This document shows, piece by piece, positions 21,979-35,961 of a stretch of 64,000 nt of DNA (the first letter of the stretch is position 1; each line of letters opens with the position of its first letter). The translations under genes were made by a program, and so were the position numbers. Source of the stretch: Myxococcota bacterium (GTDB taxonomy: Bacteria; Myxococcota_A; UBA9160; UBA6930); assembly GCA_965223705.1 (NCBI GenBank), contig OZ245015.1:1856001-1920000 (forward strand), given 5' to 3'. The notes under the pieces are model-generated. The model saw only the letters and a list, made by a program, of their open reading frames with translations. It did not search any database and was not told the DNA's origin.

Positions 21979-23232
21979 CTAACGGAGTGTGAGTCCGGCG
22001 AGGTCGATCTCGGGCTCGCGCCCCTCGATGCAATCCGCGAGAACGCGACCGGAACCACACGATAGGGTCCAGCCGAGGTGTCCGTGGCCCGTATTCACGA
22101 ACACGTTCGGGATCGGTGTCGCTCCGAGAAGCGGCGTCCCGCTCGGTGTCACGGGGCGAAGCCCCGCCCACGGCTGCGGGGTGCCGGCCGCATAGCACGC
22201 CGCAAACTCCGGGAACACCTCGATCGCGTTGTCGACGATGGCTCGGCAGCGCCGGGGATCCGGCGTCGCGTCGTAGCGCGTGACTTCCGCTGAACCGACG
22301 ACGCGCAGCCGGTCGCCGATGGGTGCCAGCGCGTAGAACCGGCTCTCGTCGATCACCGGCATTCGCGGCGGGCGTTCCCAAGCGGTTGCCTCCACCGTGA
22401 CCGACACGCCTTTTACGGGATAGACCGGAAGCCTGATTCCCAGAGGACGGAGGAGTTCCGGCGAATGAACGCCCGCGGCGACGACGACGCCGTCGGCTTC
22501 GATGCGATCGCCGTGGAGTATGACGCCCCGAACGGCGCCTCCCGAAACGTCGAGTCCGCGCACGCCGGTCTTCAGATGAAACTCAGCACCTTGCGCGCGG
22601 CAATAGTCGGCGACGGCGTGGGTGAACTTGTAGCAATCGCCCAGTTCGTCACCGGGGAAGTAGATTCCGCCCGCGAGCTGACTCGACGCACCATCGAGCG
22701 CGGGTTCGAGGCGAACGCAGGCCCCTCGGTCGAGCACTTCGAAACGCATACCGTGATCTCGCATCGACTCGCTGAGTTCGGCAGCCGCGTCGAGGGCGGA
22801 CGCTTCGGTATAGATCTTGATGCACCCCTCGGTGTTTAAGTCATACGCCGTACCGATGTCGTCGCGGACTTCGCGAAACGACTGCTGGCTCAGCAGCGCG
22901 AGGCGGAGGTTCGCGAGGGTGTTCGCGCGAAATCGCTTCGGTTGACACTCGCGCAGAAACGCCGTGCCCCAGCGGAGGACGTGGGGGATGGCGCGCGCCC
23001 GCAGGAGGACCGGCGCTTCTTCCTTGCCGAACCAACGCGCCAGTTGGAGCGGCATCCCCGGCTGCGACCAGGGCATGACCTCGCTCGCGTGAACGATTCC
23101 GCCGTTCGCAAAGCTCGCCCCCACGGCGAGGTCCTCCTCGCGCTCGAGGACGACGACGCGGTGCCCGCGCTTCGTCAAGTAGTAGGCCGTCATCGTTCCG
23201 ATGATGCCGGCTCCGACGACAACGACCTTCAT
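21979..23232 (-). CDS. dadA: D-amino acid dehydrogenase
   Basis: ATG 23232. VVGAGIIG, ASFANGG, PVYPVKG, WAGLRPVTP, NTGHGHLGWT. Confidence 0.85.
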   Translation of the reverse strand: MKVVVVGAGIIGTMTAYYLTKRGHRVVVLEREEDLAVGASFANGGIVHASEVMPWSQPGMPLQLARWFGKEEAPVLLRARAIPHVLRWGTAFLRECQPKRFRANTLANLRLALLSQQSFREVRDDIGTAYDLNTEGCIKIYTEASALDAAAELSESMRDHGMRFEVLDRGACVRLEPALDGASSQLAGGIYFPGDELGDCYKFTHAVADYCRAQGAEFHLKTGVRGLDVSGGAVRGVILHGDRIEADGVVVAAGVHSPELLRPLGIRLPVYPVKGVSVTVEATAWERPPRMPVIDESRFYALAPIGDRLRVVGSAEVTRYDATPDPRRCRAIVDNAIEVFPEFAACYAAGTPQPWAGLRPVTPSGTPLLGATPIPNVFVNTGHGHLGWTLSCGSGRVLADCIEGREPEIDLAGLTLR

Positions 23233-23948
23233 GTCGCGCCTCCCGTTGCTTGGCCGAGCAGAACCCCGACGCCGAACGTGATGCCCCCGGCGAGCAAACC
23301 GAACAGCAACTGTCGGCCGGCTCCTTTCCAAACGGGCTGGTGCGTCACCCGGGTGGCAGCGGCTCCGACGGCGAGCAGTGCCGCGCAGGAAGCGAGCGCC
23401 GACGCGACGAAGGCGTTCTCGAGGATGAGCCACGGCAGGAGCGGCACGGCGGCGCCCGTGACAAACGAAAGAAACGAGTAGAGGGCGGCCCGCACCGGGG
23501 CACCGATTTCATTCGGATTGATACCGAGCTCCATCAGCGCGTGTAGGTGCAGCGCGCTCTCCTTCTTCTCGTGCACCGCGTGGGCCAAGTGGAACGCCAC
23601 GTCCGCGGACACTCCGTTGTCCAAGAGAAGCTGGGTGAGGTCGGCGCGTTCTTCGTCCGGGTAGGCTTCGAGGTGCTCGCGTTCGAGGGCGAGCTCACGT
23701 TGGAAGACCTCGCGCTGGGTCTGCATCGAGACGTACTCGCCCGCCGCCATGGAGCAGCCGCCGGCCAGAAGCCCCGCGACGCCCGCGACAATGACCGTAG
23801 CGGGGTCGCCTTGGCCGGCGGCGACGCCCATGACGAGGGCTCCGTTCGAGACCAAGCCGTCCGAGACGCCGAAGACGCTCGCTCGCAGAACGCCGTCGGC
23901 GCCTCCGGCGGAGTGCTCGCTTCGGTGCGGGTGGGGATCGTCGCTCAC
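23229..23948 (-). CDS. VIT1/CCC1 family Fe/Mn transporter
   Basis: LRASVFGVSDGLVS, SMAAGEYVS, acidic cytosolic segment, GAAVPLLPW. Confidence 0.9.
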   Translation of the reverse strand: MSDDPHPHRSEHSAGGADGVLRASVFGVSDGLVSNGALVMGVAAGQGDPATVIVAGVAGLLAGGCSMAAGEYVSMQTQREVFQRELALEREHLEAYPDEERADLTQLLLDNGVSADVAFHLAHAVHEKKESALHLHALMELGINPNEIGAPVRAALYSFLSFVTGAAVPLLPWLILENAFVASALASCAALLAVGAAATRVTHQPVWKGAGRQLLFGLLAGGITFGVGVLLGQATGGAT

Positions 23949-30793: not shown

Positions 30794-31807
30794 CTACGCC
30801 TTCGCCGGAATCCACGGGGACACGTACACGCGTACGGAGCCACCGATGCCCTTGAGGTCGTCGGCGTCGATCAACATGCGAAACGAGTGGAAGAGATCCG
30901 GGTTCGACACTTCGGTCTCGTCCAGAACCGGTTGGGTGGCCACGATGCCGGCCGCCGGCGCGAGTTTGAGAATCCGCGAAGCCCGTGGGACACAGGGGCC
31001 GATCAAACCGACCCCGCGGCGAAAGCGGCTGCCCACCATGCCGACGACGACACGACCGTGATCGAGTGAAAGCCTCGGGAGCGGCAACGCGGGGTTCTTG
31101 TCGCGCAGGGCGACCAACCGACGGCGCATTTCGAACGCGGCAGGGACGGCCTCTCCGGGACCTTCGAAATAGAGCAGGGCGCCATCTCCTTCGAAGTCGT
31201 GGACGTCGCCGCAGTGGTAGACGCCGATCTCCGCGACGGTCTCCATGAACTCCTGAACCAGCGCGAGCACGTCGGGCGGCTCGAGTTCCATGACCAGCGG
31301 TGTCGAGTCGACCATGTCGACGAACAGCACCGTCAGGTCGCGCTGAAACGGAAGCTCGCGCCCGTGGAGGAACGAGCGATCTTCGAGGCTCGAGAGAAAC
31401 GGGTCGCCGCCCCCGGCATCGAGCTCCGGAGGCGAGTCGCCCGCCACCCAGGTGTACGAATCGCGGCGGCTCGCGTCGACGTTGGGTGTGTCCTGTCCCG
31501 CGAGGGCCCATGCGGAATAGCCGCCCGCGAGGACCGCGACGTCTCGGTAACCCAGGCTGAGGAGGAGCCGCGCCACGCGCGAGCTTGAAGACTCGCCGCT
31601 TCAGAGGCAGTACGCGACGATCGGCGTGCCCCGATCGATGTCGGGCAGCAGGATCGGATCGTCGTCGAGAAAAATCGGGACCGCATTCGGCAAACCCTTG
31701 GGCAGCTCCTCGAAGCCTTTCCGTCGCCGGACATCGAGCACCAGAGGTGCGTCGCTCGAGGCGAGCATCGGAGCCAGCAGGGCCGGCGTGAGGGTGTGGA
31801 TCGACAT
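30794..31807 (-). CDS. rhodanese (selenocysteine, CxU) - class III adenylate/guanylate cyclase fusion, 337 aa with UGA readthrough at 31601-31603
   Basis: ORFs 31601..31807 and 30794..31576 are in one frame, separated only by TGA. The joined sequence LVLDVRR..PIVAYCL-U-SGESSSSRVARLLLSLGYRDVAVLAGGYSAW is a complete rhodanese domain. Cyclase motifs TVLFVDMVDST and FEGDG follow. There is a strong SD (GGAGGAG) at 31807 and none before 31576. Confidence 0.8.
31566..31585 (-). promoter_or_regulatory. putative bacterial SECIS element
   Basis: mRNA +16 to +35 after the UGA reads AGC-U(bulge)-CGCGC-GUG-GCGCG-GCU. The apical loop starts with GU at +25. Confidence 0.6.
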
Positions 31808-31854
31808 GTTTTCTCCTCCCCGGAACGGTAGCGGTCCGCGCTACGCTCCGGCCT

Positions 31855-32640
31855 ATGCGCAGGTTTTTTGCCGCTGTTCTCGCCATCGCCTTCCCGGTAG
31901 CCGCTCCGGCCGTCGATTTTCCGATCGAAGACGCCGAAGTGCGTTCGTGCATCGATCGCTCTCTGCCCGAAAAAGCGATGACGCAGGAAATCGAGGTCCA
32001 CGTCCGCGATCAAGACGGGCCGGTGAGCGACTCCGCCGTCGAGCTCTACTGGAAGCGCTTCGAGCCGGATAGCTCCCGAGCCCTGCTGCGGTTTACGGAT
32101 CCGCCGCGACGCGCCGGGGTCGGCGTGCTCCTCATCGAAACCGAGGAGCCCGAGCCGGAGATGTACCTCTACTTGCCCGAGCTTCGGCAGACGCGCCGGG
32201 TGACCGGGAAAACCCTGGCCGGATCGATGCTCGGAACCGATTTCAGCTACGAGGATTTCGCTCATTTTCAGGGGATTGCCCTCGCGAGCGAAGTCGAGCG
32301 CATCGAGGATCGAGATCTCGACGGTCGGGCCGCGTTCGTCCTTGAGACGACGCCCCTCGACGAGAACTCCGGCTACCAGCGGATCCTGACCTTCATCGAT
32401 CGGGAACAGTGCATCCCTGTGCGGATGGAGTTCTTCGCCCGGAACGGCAACCTCCGCAAAGAGCTCGTCGTGCATCGCGACCAGATCCGAGAGATCGGCA
32501 ACCGGTTCATTCCGCATCGAATCGTGATGTCCGATCTCAAACAGGGCAGTCACACCGAGCTTGTCGTCGTCGACGTCGAAGTCGATCCGAAGTTGCGAGA
32601 TCGTTTCTTCGAGCCGTCCGAGCTCGAGATCGGTCGCTAG
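31855..32640 (+). CDS. outer-membrane lipoprotein-sorting (LolA-like) protein
   Basis: Signal peptide, LLRFTDP, MYLYLPELRQTRRV, MLGTDFSYEDF. This family usually accompanies MMPL/RND genes. Confidence 0.85.
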   Translation: MRRFFAAVLAIAFPVAAPAVDFPIEDAEVRSCIDRSLPEKAMTQEIEVHVRDQDGPVSDSAVELYWKRFEPDSSRALLRFTDPPRRAGVGVLLIETEEPEPEMYLYLPELRQTRRVTGKTLAGSMLGTDFSYEDFAHFQGIALASEVERIEDRDLDGRAAFVLETTPLDENSGYQRILTFIDREQCIPVRMEFFARNGNLRKELVVHRDQIREIGNRFIPHRIVMSDLKQGSHTELVVVDVEVDPKLRDRFFEPSELEIGR

Positions 32641-32647
32641 GCACCGA

Positions 32648-35359
32648 ATGTGGGGTCACGTGCTCTTCGGGCCGGCCCGGCGGCCGTGGCTCATCGGCGC
32701 GTTCGTCCTCGGCTTGAGCGTCGTCGCAGCGCACACCTTGTTCGATTTCCCGTCGGGTCGGTTGCGCCTCCCGATCGACGCCTCCATCGAAGGGCTCTTG
32801 CCGGCCGGTGATCCGGCTCTCGAGGTCTTCGAAGCCACGAAGGAAACGTTCGGCGACGACGATGTGCTGTTGATCGCGTGGTTCTCCGATGCGCTGTTTT
32901 CGCCGTCGGTCCTCACCGCGCTGAAGACATTTCACGGCGAGCTCGTCGCGATGGATTTCGTCGAGGCGGTCGACAGCCTGGTGTCCGCCGAGCGTCTGAC
33001 GACCGATGACGAGCAGACGCACGTCGAATCGTTCTTGGCCGAGATTCCGGAAGATGGGAAGGCTGCGCAGGACCTCGCCGATGCGCTCCTCAGCGACCCG
33101 CTCTACCGCGGCCAGATCGTTTCGAACGACGGCACGGGGACACTTTTCGTGGTTCGCTTCGCGCCCGGTGGGAGCGACGAGCTCGAAGCGCGGGTAGCGG
33201 CGGTGGCCGCCTCGGCCGCCGAGGCGGCACCGCCCGGCACGCAGAGCTTCGCGTCGGGACCGGTCTTCGCGCGGATCGAGACGAACCGGCTGCTGTTCCG
33301 GGATCTCCGCCTGGTGCTCCCGCTCGCCGTCCTCGGCACGCTCCTCGTGGCCACGCTCGGGATGAGGTCGCTCCACGGTGTGCTCCTGCCGCTGCTGGCG
33401 AACGGTGTGTCGCTCCTCGTGACCCTCGCGATCTACGCGGCGTCGGGCTTCTCGCTGAACTTCGTCACCGTCGTCATGCCGCCCGTCGTCTTTGTCGTGG
33501 GCTTCGCGTACGCGGTCCACGTGGTAAGCGATTTCGATCGTCAGGTAGCGAACGGGCTCGTGGGACGGGAGGCGATCGAAGCGGGGCTCACGGGCGCGAT
33601 CCTGCCGCTCACCTTGACTGCGTTCACGACGGCCATCGGTTTCGCTTCACTCGCGGCGAGCGCCATCGAGTCGATCCGGTTGTTCGGCCTGTTCTCGGCG
33701 CTGGGAACCCTCCTGGCCTGGGTCGCTTCCTGGGTCGTCGTGCCCATCGGCTTGCGGGCGATCGGAGCAAGCTCCGGCAAACGGGTCGGCACGGGCCGAC
33801 TCTTGGCGCTCGCCCCCAAGCTCGCGCATTTCGACGTTCGCCACCGCGGCGCGATCGTGATCGCCGGCGGGCTCATCGCTCTGGTGAGCCTACTCGCATC
33901 GACGCGGATCGAGGTCAGCACGGATTTCCTCGGGAACTTTCCGGAAGACAGCGCCGTGAGGCGAGACTTCGAAAGACTTTCGGGGAGCTTCTCCGGCGCC
34001 GTGCCGATTCAGGTGCTTCTCCGCGCGGACCGCGCCGGTGCGCTCCTCGAGCCCGGCGTCCTGCGCCAGATCGCCGAGCTCGATCGCTGGCTCACGGAAC
34101 AACCGGAAATCGGCGGCGTCGCGTCCTTCGCGGATGCCGTCGCGCTTCTCTACCGCGGTTTTGCGCCGGGCATCCCCGAGGAGGAAGTCCCCGGGAGCGC
34201 CGGGCTCACCGAGCAGCTGCTGCTCCTGGGCGGAGGCGACGAGATCGCTCGCTTCGTCGACGCGCGCCACCGCGAGACACTGCTTCACGTCCGAAGTCGG
34301 GCCGTCGCGTCCGGCGACCTCGCCGCGTTGATTTCTCGCATCGAGCATCGCCTCGCGGAACTGGGGGGCGGCATCGAGGCGCACGTCACGGGAAGTTCGG
34401 TCCTGGTCGCGCGCACCATCGACGACATCACCCGCGGCCAGATGCGGAGCTTGCTCGGCGCGCTGCTCGTGATCTACGGGGTGCTCGCGACCCTGTTCGG
34501 CTCCTTCCGTATCGGAGCGCTGGCCCTGGTTCCCAACGCGTTGCCCATCCTGGTGTACTTCGGGCTCCTCGGCTTGTCGGGGATCACGCTCAACGCGACG
34601 ACCGGCCTCGTCGCCTCCATCGTCCTCGGCATCGCCGTCGACGACAGCATTCACTTTCTGTCGCGCTTCAACACCGAAGCGCGTCGCGTGGCGGACGAAA
34701 GAATCGGTGTCGAGCGGGCGCTCTCGACGGTGATCCGCCCGGTGACGTTCACGACCGCGGCGATGTGCCTGGGCTTCTTGGCCCTGCTCGCCAGCGAGCT
34801 CCGCAATCCGATGGATTTCGGAGTGCTCGCCGCGGCAACACTCGCGTTCGCCTGGTTGCTCGACTTGACGTTCACGCCCGCACTCGCGAGTCGTTTGAGG
34901 TTCGTCACCTTGTGGGAGGCGCTCACCGTCGACCTGGGCGCGGCGCCCCACCGCACGATCCCGCTCTTCTCCGGCTTGACGCACCGACAAGCGCGGGTCG
35001 CCGCACTGATGGGGACGATTCAGTCCTTCGACGGGGGGACGCGGGTGCTTCAGATCGGCGACGAGGGGAGTGAGATCTGCGTTGTGATCGACGGGGAGCT
35101 CGTCGCGACGCTCCCCCGCGAAGGAGGTGACCGCGTGCTTCGCCCGCTCGAGCGCGGCGACCTCATCGGCGAGGTGGCGTTGTTTCACGGGACGCGCACG
35201 GCCAATGTCGATGCGCGCACTCCGGTTCGGGTGCTGCGGCTCAACGACCGGTGTCTCGAGCGCCTGCAGGATCGCTATCCCCGAATCGCCGCCCAGCTGT
35301 ATCGGAACCTGGGAGATATTCTCGCGTCGCGGCTCGCCGACACGACGGGCCGGCTGTAG
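32648..35359 (+). CDS. MMPL/RND-family transporter with C-terminal cyclic-nucleotide-binding domain
   Basis: ATG 32648. Two TM repeats (TTAIGFASL; LGIAVDDSIHFL). CNB domain IPLFSGL..GDEGSEICVVIDGEL..GDLIGEVALFHGTRTANV. Confidence 0.88.
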   Translation: MWGHVLFGPARRPWLIGAFVLGLSVVAAHTLFDFPSGRLRLPIDASIEGLLPAGDPALEVFEATKETFGDDDVLLIAWFSDALFSPSVLTALKTFHGELVAMDFVEAVDSLVSAERLTTDDEQTHVESFLAEIPEDGKAAQDLADALLSDPLYRGQIVSNDGTGTLFVVRFAPGGSDELEARVAAVAASAAEAAPPGTQSFASGPVFARIETNRLLFRDLRLVLPLAVLGTLLVATLGMRSLHGVLLPLLANGVSLLVTLAIYAASGFSLNFVTVVMPPVVFVVGFAYAVHVVSDFDRQVANGLVGREAIEAGLTGAILPLTLTAFTTAIGFASLAASAIESIRLFGLFSALGTLLAWVASWVVVPIGLRAIGASSGKRVGTGRLLALAPKLAHFDVRHRGAIVIAGGLIALVSLLASTRIEVSTDFLGNFPEDSAVRRDFERLSGSFSGAVPIQVLLRADRAGALLEPGVLRQIAELDRWLTEQPEIGGVASFADAVALLYRGFAPGIPEEEVPGSAGLTEQLLLLGGGDEIARFVDARHRETLLHVRSRAVASGDLAALISRIEHRLAELGGGIEAHVTGSSVLVARTIDDITRGQMRSLLGALLVIYGVLATLFGSFRIGALALVPNALPILVYFGLLGLSGITLNATTGLVASIVLGIAVDDSIHFLSRFNTEARRVADERIGVERALSTVIRPVTFTTAAMCLGFLALLASELRNPMDFGVLAAATLAFAWLLDLTFTPALASRLRFVTLWEALTVDLGAAPHRTIPLFSGLTHRQARVAALMGTIQSFDGGTRVLQIGDEGSEICVVIDGELVATLPREGGDRVLRPLERGDLIGEVALFHGTRTANVDARTPVRVLRLNDRCLERLQDRYPRIAAQLYRNLGDILASRLADTTGRL

Positions 35360-35373
35360 CCCGCGAGCAGCGG

Positions 35374-35886
35374 CTAGGGGATTCGCCCCTTTTCCATCGC
35401 TTTTCGATAGGAGCAGTCCGCGGGCGAGCGGCACTCGGCATAGATCTCGTGCCGGTGGTCGCGGATCGTGAGCCCATGAGCGGCGGCGACCTCGCGCTGT
35501 CGCGCCTCGATCGCCTCGTCTTCGAACTCGAAAATCTGTCCGCAGGTGGTGCAGATCAGATGGTCGTGATGGGCGCCGAGATCCGCGAGTTCGTAGCGCG
35601 CCTGGCCGTCCGTGAAATGGCGCTCCTCGGCGACCGAGGCGTCCACCAGTAAACGCAGCGTTCGATATACCGTGGTGAGGCCAACACTTGGATCGAGTTT
35701 CTTAACGTTGTCTGTGAGCTCTTGGACGGTGAGGTGGCCGTTCGATTCCAAGAACACGTTGAGCACGAGGTCCCGTTGCCGCGTGTGCTTCAGCCCTTCA
35801 CCTTCCATGTGCCGAGCGAGGAGCGAGCGCGCGCGCTCCGCGCGGGCGACTGCCGCGCGGCTTCGTTCGCTGTCGCTGTTCTCCAC
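35374..35886 (-). CDS. fur: Fur-family transcriptional regulator; start uncertain
   Basis: TRQR, HLTVQEL, VGLTTVYRTL, HHDHLICTTCG, HRHEIYAEC. Confidence 0.88.
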   Translation of the reverse strand: MENSDSERSRAAVARAERARSLLARHMEGEGLKHTRQRDLVLNVFLESNGHLTVQELTDNVKKLDPSVGLTTVYRTLRLLVDASVAEERHFTDGQARYELADLGAHHDHLICTTCGQIFEFEDEAIEARQREVAAAHGLTIRDHRHEIYAECRSPADCSYRKAMEKGRIP

Positions 35887-35961
35887 CCGAACCCCCTCGC
35901 AGACCTCCCGGCAATGAAATCCCAGAATGGGATCGCTTGCCAACTCATCGCCTGCACGGGG

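Follow-up and report, generated by a model that had tools for sequence, protein, structure and literature searches.

Gene organization and reading frame

The analysed window, a 64,000-nucleotide stretch of the genome of a Myxococcota bacterium, harbours on its minus strand a gene (30794..31807) for a predicted fusion of a selenocysteine (Sec)-containing rhodanese with a class III nucleotide cyclase, extending from an ATG at 31807 to a TAG at 30796-30794. An earlier note, which gave no strand, had described two in-frame ORFs separated by nothing but a TGA and proposed that read-through restores an intact rhodanese domain. Frame 1 of the minus strand indeed contains a single internal stop, TGA at codon 69 (31601..31603, minus strand, read from 31603 to 31601), in the context YCL-[TGA]-SGESSSSRVA. 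Read-through yields a product of 337 amino acids, which scores 39.2 bits with the Pfam Rhodanese model (cut-off 22.2), whereas the 260-aa downstream ORF alone scores 14.6 bits and stays below the cut-off. Reading 30794..31807 on the plus strand yielded no meaningful protein.

A Shine-Dalgarno motif (GGAGGAG; 31813..31819, minus strand) is located 5 nt before the ATG at 31807, with a predicted anti-Shine-Dalgarno duplex of -11.0 kcal/mol. For the first start codon past the TGA (GTG at 31576) this value is only -2.5, in agreement with the earlier assignment of a ribosome binding site to the upstream ATG, and for an internal TTG (codon 39) upstream of the TGA it is -8.1. Third-position GC content amounts to 0.82 before the TGA, 0.80 just after it and 0.82 well after it. 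A scan for promoters and terminators at the locus found none. In the public protein collection the gene appears as two separate entries, P0282 (68 aa) and P0296 (260 aa), which is the split that had been anticipated for standard gene calling. Contigs (rather than raw reads) of four public runs, all from one sample that is possibly the source itself, match the stretch without differences and carry the same TGA. Taken together, the gene is confirmed as a real, mis-annotated selenoprotein gene, and the original observation holds up.

Selenocysteine machinery and conservation of the UGA codon

Genes of the Sec machinery were identified in the source genome (G000; 95% complete): selA (486 bits), selB (320.7 bits) and selD (269.6 bits) all exceed their curated cut-offs, as does the gene for tRNA-Sec (score 78.2). 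The selD gene is part of an open frame of 736 aa that directly precedes selB (G000:C1:22501-27564), which suggests a fused selD.

The protein search returned 306 matches among 8000 scored candidates, 120 of which were listed. The site of codon 69 is covered in 115 of these listed proteins and is occupied by Cys in every case. The five remaining are the closest relatives among the matches listed (67-91% identity) and start just after the TGA site; one of them, P0003 (90-91% identical), has a 68-aa partner, P0284, that ends at the same residue as the TGA cut. The first residue of the CxU motif, Cys67 (31607..31609, minus strand), is Cys in 115/115 listed covering proteins and in all 97 other DNA loci.

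At the DNA level, 151 loci were screened, 133 of which scored above 150 bits; 31 of these lack the site and four misaligned ones (L105, L108, L192 and L163, the last showing TGA upon inspection) were dropped. In the 98 remaining loci, the site codon is TGA in 44 (window included), TGC or TGT in 54, and never any other; the 97 loci besides the window thus comprise 43 with TGA and 54 with a Cys codon. The 43 further TGA loci span several phyla and represent 36 distinct 69-nt sequences, with named records from Myxococcota, Binatia, Methylomirabilota/Rokuibacteriota, Tectomicrobia and one Spirochaetales bin. Since the column is Cys in 115/115 listed proteins and TGA or Cys in 98/98 loci, the coincidence of TGA with this position goes beyond chance. 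The family is sparse, being carried by 7 of 301 sampled genomes of the phylum, G000 included.

Both selA and selB were present in 15/15 tested genomes with TGA, as compared to selA in 6/29 and selB in 5/29 genomes with the Cys form and neither in any of the 23 gammaproteobacterial Cys genomes; this tally leaves out L093 (site in an N gap; selA only), many of its genomes are incomplete bins, and related genomes are non-independent. A comparison for excess TGT at the site, which would hint that Sec was lost recently, gave no signal (9/41 vs 7/41 at Cys67). None of the three findings that the earlier note had named as contradicting Sec insertion was encountered, i.e., absence of the machinery, homologues with a residue other than Cys, or a discrepancy in the reads. 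The UGA almost certainly encodes Sec, inserted at residue 69.

When the whole genome was scanned for Sec genes on the basis of codon scores, two candidates emerged but the known positive was missed, and the scan was discarded; it pointed to a candidate in-frame TGA near G000:C1 322673 (minus strand; following a 383-codon ORF, GHUGG context).

In a quick tree built from 80 full-length sequences (site masked, rooted at the midpoint), four Sec/Cys changes are needed, at least two of which are forced by well-supported branches; the mean for shuffled states is 26. The window row groups on a long branch with two Cys-form Myxococcota rows (support 91). Sec may be the older state that was replaced by Cys in several lineages, among them Gammaproteobacteria without Sec machinery that carry the gene inside copper operons; this is a reading of the tree rather than a result, because the root is only a midpoint and the window lies on a long branch.

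A SECIS-type hairpin downstream of the UGA

A crude model of the selenocysteine insertion sequence (SECIS) proved weak, passing 32/37 TGA loci but also 20/41 Cys loci. Instead, pairs were counted in fixed register across 37 distinct TGA loci and 41 Cys loci. In 27 of the 37 TGA loci, a common stem of 5 bp was found whose loop, of the CG(G/U)GU type, is placed at +22 to +26; all five pairs are intact in 27/27, and the stem is kept in 4/41 Cys loci. Its pair 18-30 occurs as U-A (20), C-G (6) or U-G (1), involving two synonymous positions. Nine other TGA loci have in common a stem of 8 bp topped by a GGU loop at +24, intact in 9/9 and kept in 1/41 Cys loci; here, pair 18-32 is C-G (5) or U-A (4), the two versions differing in Ser vs Asn. 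Moreover, the Arg77 codon is CGG in 33/37 TGA loci vs 2/41 Cys loci. At the family level, a hairpin is thus found within 16-37 nt after the UGA and displays compensatory changes, which constitutes strong evidence for a covarying SECIS-type element kept across TGA loci.

The candidate hairpin of the window itself (31566..31585, minus strand) represents a third register. Its loop begins at +24 from the UGA and can be drawn as a GUG triloop or as a CGUGG pentaloop, with a bulged U. It matches the bacterial SECIS model given in the legend to Fig. 2 of PMC13188914. It is not more stable than shuffled sequences (z +1.47 to -1.40), and its stem also occurs in 4/41 Cys loci; taken alone it lacks significance, and as a SECIS element it is no more than plausible.

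This non-significant hairpin, shared with the Cys-form tree neighbour L063, is what could be cited for the TGA being a real stop, arising from nonsense mutation or assembly error and leaving either a pseudogene or a 68-aa peptide next to a 260-aa cyclase. Such a stop is very improbable in view of the 43 other loci from several phyla in which this codon is likewise TGA, with selA and selB always present where tested, of the relative with 90-91% identity that is cut at the same residue (P0284, P0003), and of the downstream ORF being devoid of a Shine-Dalgarno motif.

Rhodanese domain

The N-terminal rhodanese domain (aa 1-110; 31478..31807, minus strand; PF00581, 39.2 bits) bears the active-site loop with C67-L-U69. 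Its modelled structure matches that of GlpE (Z 13.7, rmsd 2.3, 105 residues aligned), and by helix register in the alignment U69 takes the position of the catalytic Cys of the rhodanese fold. Thiosulfate sulfurtransferases of the GlpE type have a six-residue loop of the C-x-x-G-x-R/S type. The loop of the window protein differs from this type in having no Arg at the respective place, and according to the alignment it is two residues longer than those of solved sulfurtransferases and lacks their Arg-Ser ending.

Table 1 of a recent review (PMC13188914) lists five forms of rhodanese selenoproteins, form 3 of which carries CxU. The corresponding model NF041203 (rhodanese_LYCAU, rhodanese-like selenoprotein form 3) is the best NCBIfam match of the window protein and resembles it in rhodanese fold, CxU motif and the occurrence of Sec/Cys pairs. 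The score of 47.4 bits (E 1.4e-12), however, does not reach the cut-off of 115, and seven homologues likewise score 41.3-75.5 bits; while the model comprises 126 positions, the window protein possesses an additional C-terminal cyclase domain. It is regarded as a CxU-type rhodanese with a new domain architecture and not as belonging to NF041203.

Two further rhodanese genes with one in-frame TGA each were detected in G000. One of them (L058, G000:C1:146096-146413), a paralogous sensor-like domain, has the same CxU...SS.RVA type of loop and a clean CGGGU-loop hairpin after the UGA; it encodes a membrane protein with C-terminal rhodanese and without cyclase domain, whereas the window gene is a cyclase fusion. 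A class III cyclase gene is located about 4.5 kb from L058. The other (L207, G000:C1:942170-942469) has its TGA at the catalytic position in a UxGG motif followed by a strong hairpin (z -2.5), and probably represents a known UxxG form.

Cyclase domain

The C-terminal part (aa 151-337; 30797..31357, minus strand) adopts a class III nucleotide-cyclase fold in the structure model, in which both domains together reach a pLDDT of 90 and a pTM of 0.86 and are connected by a loose linker (129-138). Residues 151-337 match Cya2 (2w01) with Z 23.1, rmsd 2.0 and 181 aligned residues, and Foldseek reports a cyclase-fold match at E 6.6e-15. Together with the Pfam rhodanese match, this is in line with the product originally proposed, a 337-aa fusion of CxU rhodanese and class III cyclase fold. 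Fold scores are nearly tied between Cya2 (Z 23.1), CyaB (22.3) and CyaC (22.0) and leave guanylyl and adenylyl cyclases undivided.

With Cya2, CyaB (3r5g), CyaC (1wc1) and Rv1900c (1ybt) the window protein shares the fold (Z 21.6-23.1), the two metal-binding aspartates and the catalytic Arg; it differs from these class III cyclases in Asp204 instead of Glu/Lys and in Pro274 at the place of the transition-state Asn, and adds a conserved Cys199 as well as the putative sensor domain of rhodanese type. Among the 120 proteins listed, the metal-binding Asp164 and Asp208 are kept in 119 and 120, respectively, and the transition-state Arg278 in 115. The position of the transition-state Asn is more variable in this set (Asn 72, His 31, Pro 16). 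Asp204, at the first specificity position, is invariant among the 120; at the second one, occupied by Gly267 in the window protein, Ala (56) and Ser (56) prevail over Gly (5).

Asp204 and Gly267 align with Glu and Gly of Cya2, whereas CyaB and OaPAC carry Lys and Thr. Glu as the guanylyl-cyclase residue and Gly as the second residue of Cya2 are described in passages of PMC4215837, which also present K101E/D157G as the best GTP-using, yet ATP-preferring, double mutant of Ma1120. The window protein thus has Asp for Glu of the Cya2-type guanylyl pair, plus Gly, and does not display the ATP-specific adenylyl pair (Lys plus Asp/Thr). From these residues, a predicted cyclase activity would likely lean towards GTP.

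The same substitutions (Lys to Asp204; Asn to Pro, His or Ser) could also signify that the cyclase-fold domain binds a nucleotide and synthesizes no cyclic nucleotide, instead regulating, or being served by, a rhodanese domain that acts as a metal- or sulfur-handling enzyme. This view would agree with the Pfam cyclase score of 15.1, below the cut-off of 21.9, with the common fold of the 'adenylyl cyclase-like ATP-binding protein' 6yii (Z 16.1), and with the lack of a recurrent cyclic nucleotide (cNMP) receptor among the neighbouring genes. It is considered unlikely, as hardly any of the proteins listed deviates at the two metal aspartates or the catalytic Arg, Ma1120 and Rv1900c are active cyclases without the transition-state Asn (passages of PMC4215837 and PMC4886424), and genes for cNMP-binding proteins do occur nearby, namely an MMPL transporter in the divergent unit of the window and an ion channel beside the gene of locus L101. 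It is quite probable that the cyclase domain is an active enzyme.

A conserved third cysteine

Cys199 of the cyclase domain (HCGD motif; 31211..31213, minus strand) is a candidate third thiol partner of the CxU motif. It is present in 120/120 listed proteins and in every one of the 95 fused loci spanning this position (42 with Sec, 53 with Cys). Among 34 cyclase-only loci, 25 lack Cys199 (Ala in 23, Gly or Arg in the rest). The nine that possess it are probably cut fused genes, as they start at or near a contig end, a gap, or a frameshifted or joined stretch. In P0138, CxC and Cys199 are lost together, yet this protein may simply be decaying, since Asp164 is lost as well. A strict coupling of CxU and Cys199 is argued against by context-free cyclase-only proteins that keep Cys199 (P0139, P0142, P0145, P0146, P0149, P0158).

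Stand-alone cyclase relatives without rhodanese domain (L105-L108, L186-L206) mostly have Ala at the position of Cys199; named records belong to Methylomirabilota and one Burkholderiales bin. The Cys199-Ala group may form one clade.

Genomic context

Neighbouring ORFs of 99 loci were clustered and 25 representatives named by Pfam; classes counted as metal genes were multicopper oxidase, P-type ATPase with heavy-metal-binding domain, CDF/HMA, CusAB-like, MerR, DUF411 and DUF326. When the count is confined to genome loci spanning 7 kb or more, with L093 omitted and L090 and L097 removed for being too short, copper or heavy-metal genes are present in 26/30 with the Cys form, often on the same strand and abutting, and in 2/14 with the Sec form (L053, L061). 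For metagenome loci of at least 5 kb the counts are 12/16 (Cys), 0/9 (Sec) and 0/10 (others). A gene order typical of Cys-form loci runs, on one strand, from an outer-membrane efflux protein through multicopper oxidase, cytochrome c and the fusion gene to DUF411; other Cys-form genes directly adjoin a gene for a heavy-metal P-type ATPase or one of the CDF/HMA class. These copper-operon cases are non-independent, because most belong to one gammaproteobacterial clade. The Sec-form genes of L053 and L061 lie about 0.7 kb from a heavy-metal-binding P-type ATPase gene and about 1.2 kb from merB, respectively. Overall, the genes surrounding the Cys forms speak for copper or heavy-metal stress rather than for the sulfur, selenium or redox signals suggested earlier.

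A Pfam scan of 101 out of 212 neighbouring ORFs of 22 Sec loci revealed a mixed context that includes lipid metabolism genes. Further neighbours are other class III cyclases (L094, L101) and the merB of L061; in L173, genes for a double rhodanese and sulfur transport adjoin. In L101 (2338-5676), the Sec-form gene is followed by genes for a cNMP-binding ion channel and a HAMP-domain cyclase.

In the window, no metal gene is adjacent to the fusion gene. A Fur-family gene (35374-35943, minus strand) and a VIT1-family transporter gene (23229-23948, minus strand) are located at distances of 3.6 and 6.8 kb, respectively. A divergent unit comprises genes for a LolA-like protein (31855-32640, plus strand) and an MMPL/RND transporter (32561-35359, plus strand), the latter with a C-terminal cNMP-binding domain, one of seven such domains in the genome. 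The MMPL gene is unsupported as a conserved partner, as it found no match among the ORFs of the 98 other loci.

Proposed function

The following proposal, in which a Cys/Sec-based sensor of soft metals or thiol state gates a cyclase, is given a probability of roughly 0.4. The gene would encode a single soluble selenoprotein, with SelB-dependent insertion of Sec at residue 69 being its strongly supported part. The rhodanese fold would serve as a sensor and not as a classical thiosulfate sulfurtransferase, and C67-x-U69 together with Cys199 of the cyclase domain would supply soft thiol and selenol ligands. As input, either binding of a thiophilic metal, with Cu(I) as the likeliest one, or thiol oxidation caused by such metals would displace the rhodanese domain relative to the cyclase domain and thereby switch the class III cyclase, presumably a homodimer as usual in this family. 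From Asp204 and Gly267, cGMP or a mixture of cGMP and cAMP appears a more likely product than cAMP alone. Its most specific version is advanced tentatively, namely that a soft metal such as copper is bound by the Cys-x-Sec loop and the cyclase-domain Cys and so controls cGMP synthesis in bacteria, within a widespread, unreported family of Sec-gated second-messenger enzymes.

The same selenoprotein cyclase might instead respond to reactive sulfur or peroxide, with U69 accepting sulfane sulfur or becoming oxidized, C67 resolving it and a relay to Cys199 switching the cyclase. U69 at the position of the catalytic Cys in a rhodanese fold would fit such chemistry, section 7 of PMC13188914 regards most uncharacterized selenoproteins as probably redox-active, the double rhodanese and sulfur-transport genes adjoin L173, and the coupling to Cys199 suits a relay equally well. 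On the other hand, the loop exceeds that of solved sulfurtransferases by two residues and has no Arg-Ser ending, sulfur genes accompany a single locus among the 101 neighbouring ORFs of 22 Sec loci, and the Cys forms are located in metal operons. A sulfur or peroxide input is, accordingly, regarded as possible but rather doubtful.

Relation to described selenoproteins and significance

The prokaryotic selenoprotein families covered in passages of a 2026 review (PMC13188914) are mostly redox enzymes; its table of 119 families contains no nucleotide cyclase, and the term 'cyclase' is absent from these passages and section 7. A term search likewise found no 'cyclase' in PMC12013277 (main text and four supplements) and neither 'cyclase' nor 'rhodanese' in PMC13326102 (main text and one supplement), the supplement being uninformative because even 'rhodanese' is missing from it. 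Full-text literature searches for a rhodanese-cyclase fusion, from the scope of which most subscription papers fall outside, retrieved nothing relevant for either form. The earlier suggestion of an undescribed fusion therefore stands in so far as no paper was found; the architecture as such is already labelled by automatic annotation, JGI entries named 'class 3 adenylate cyclase/rhodanese-related sulfurtransferase' representing the same architecture and family with 45-57% identity over most of the length. These labelled fusions are Cys forms, whereas Sec forms, which gene callers interrupt at the UGA, sit in the protein collection as split fragments and thereby escape protein databases.

Cys forms occur inside copper-resistance clusters of cultured strains, by record titles Sinimarinibacterium flocculans, Solimonas fluminis and Hydrocarboniphaga effusa, so that input, product and the advantage of Sec vs Cys are accessible to ordinary biochemistry and genetics. 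A Sec-bearing cyclase, if true, would place selenium in second-messenger signalling; selenium would then be a direct signalling sensor, and cyclic nucleotides would be tied to metal resistance.
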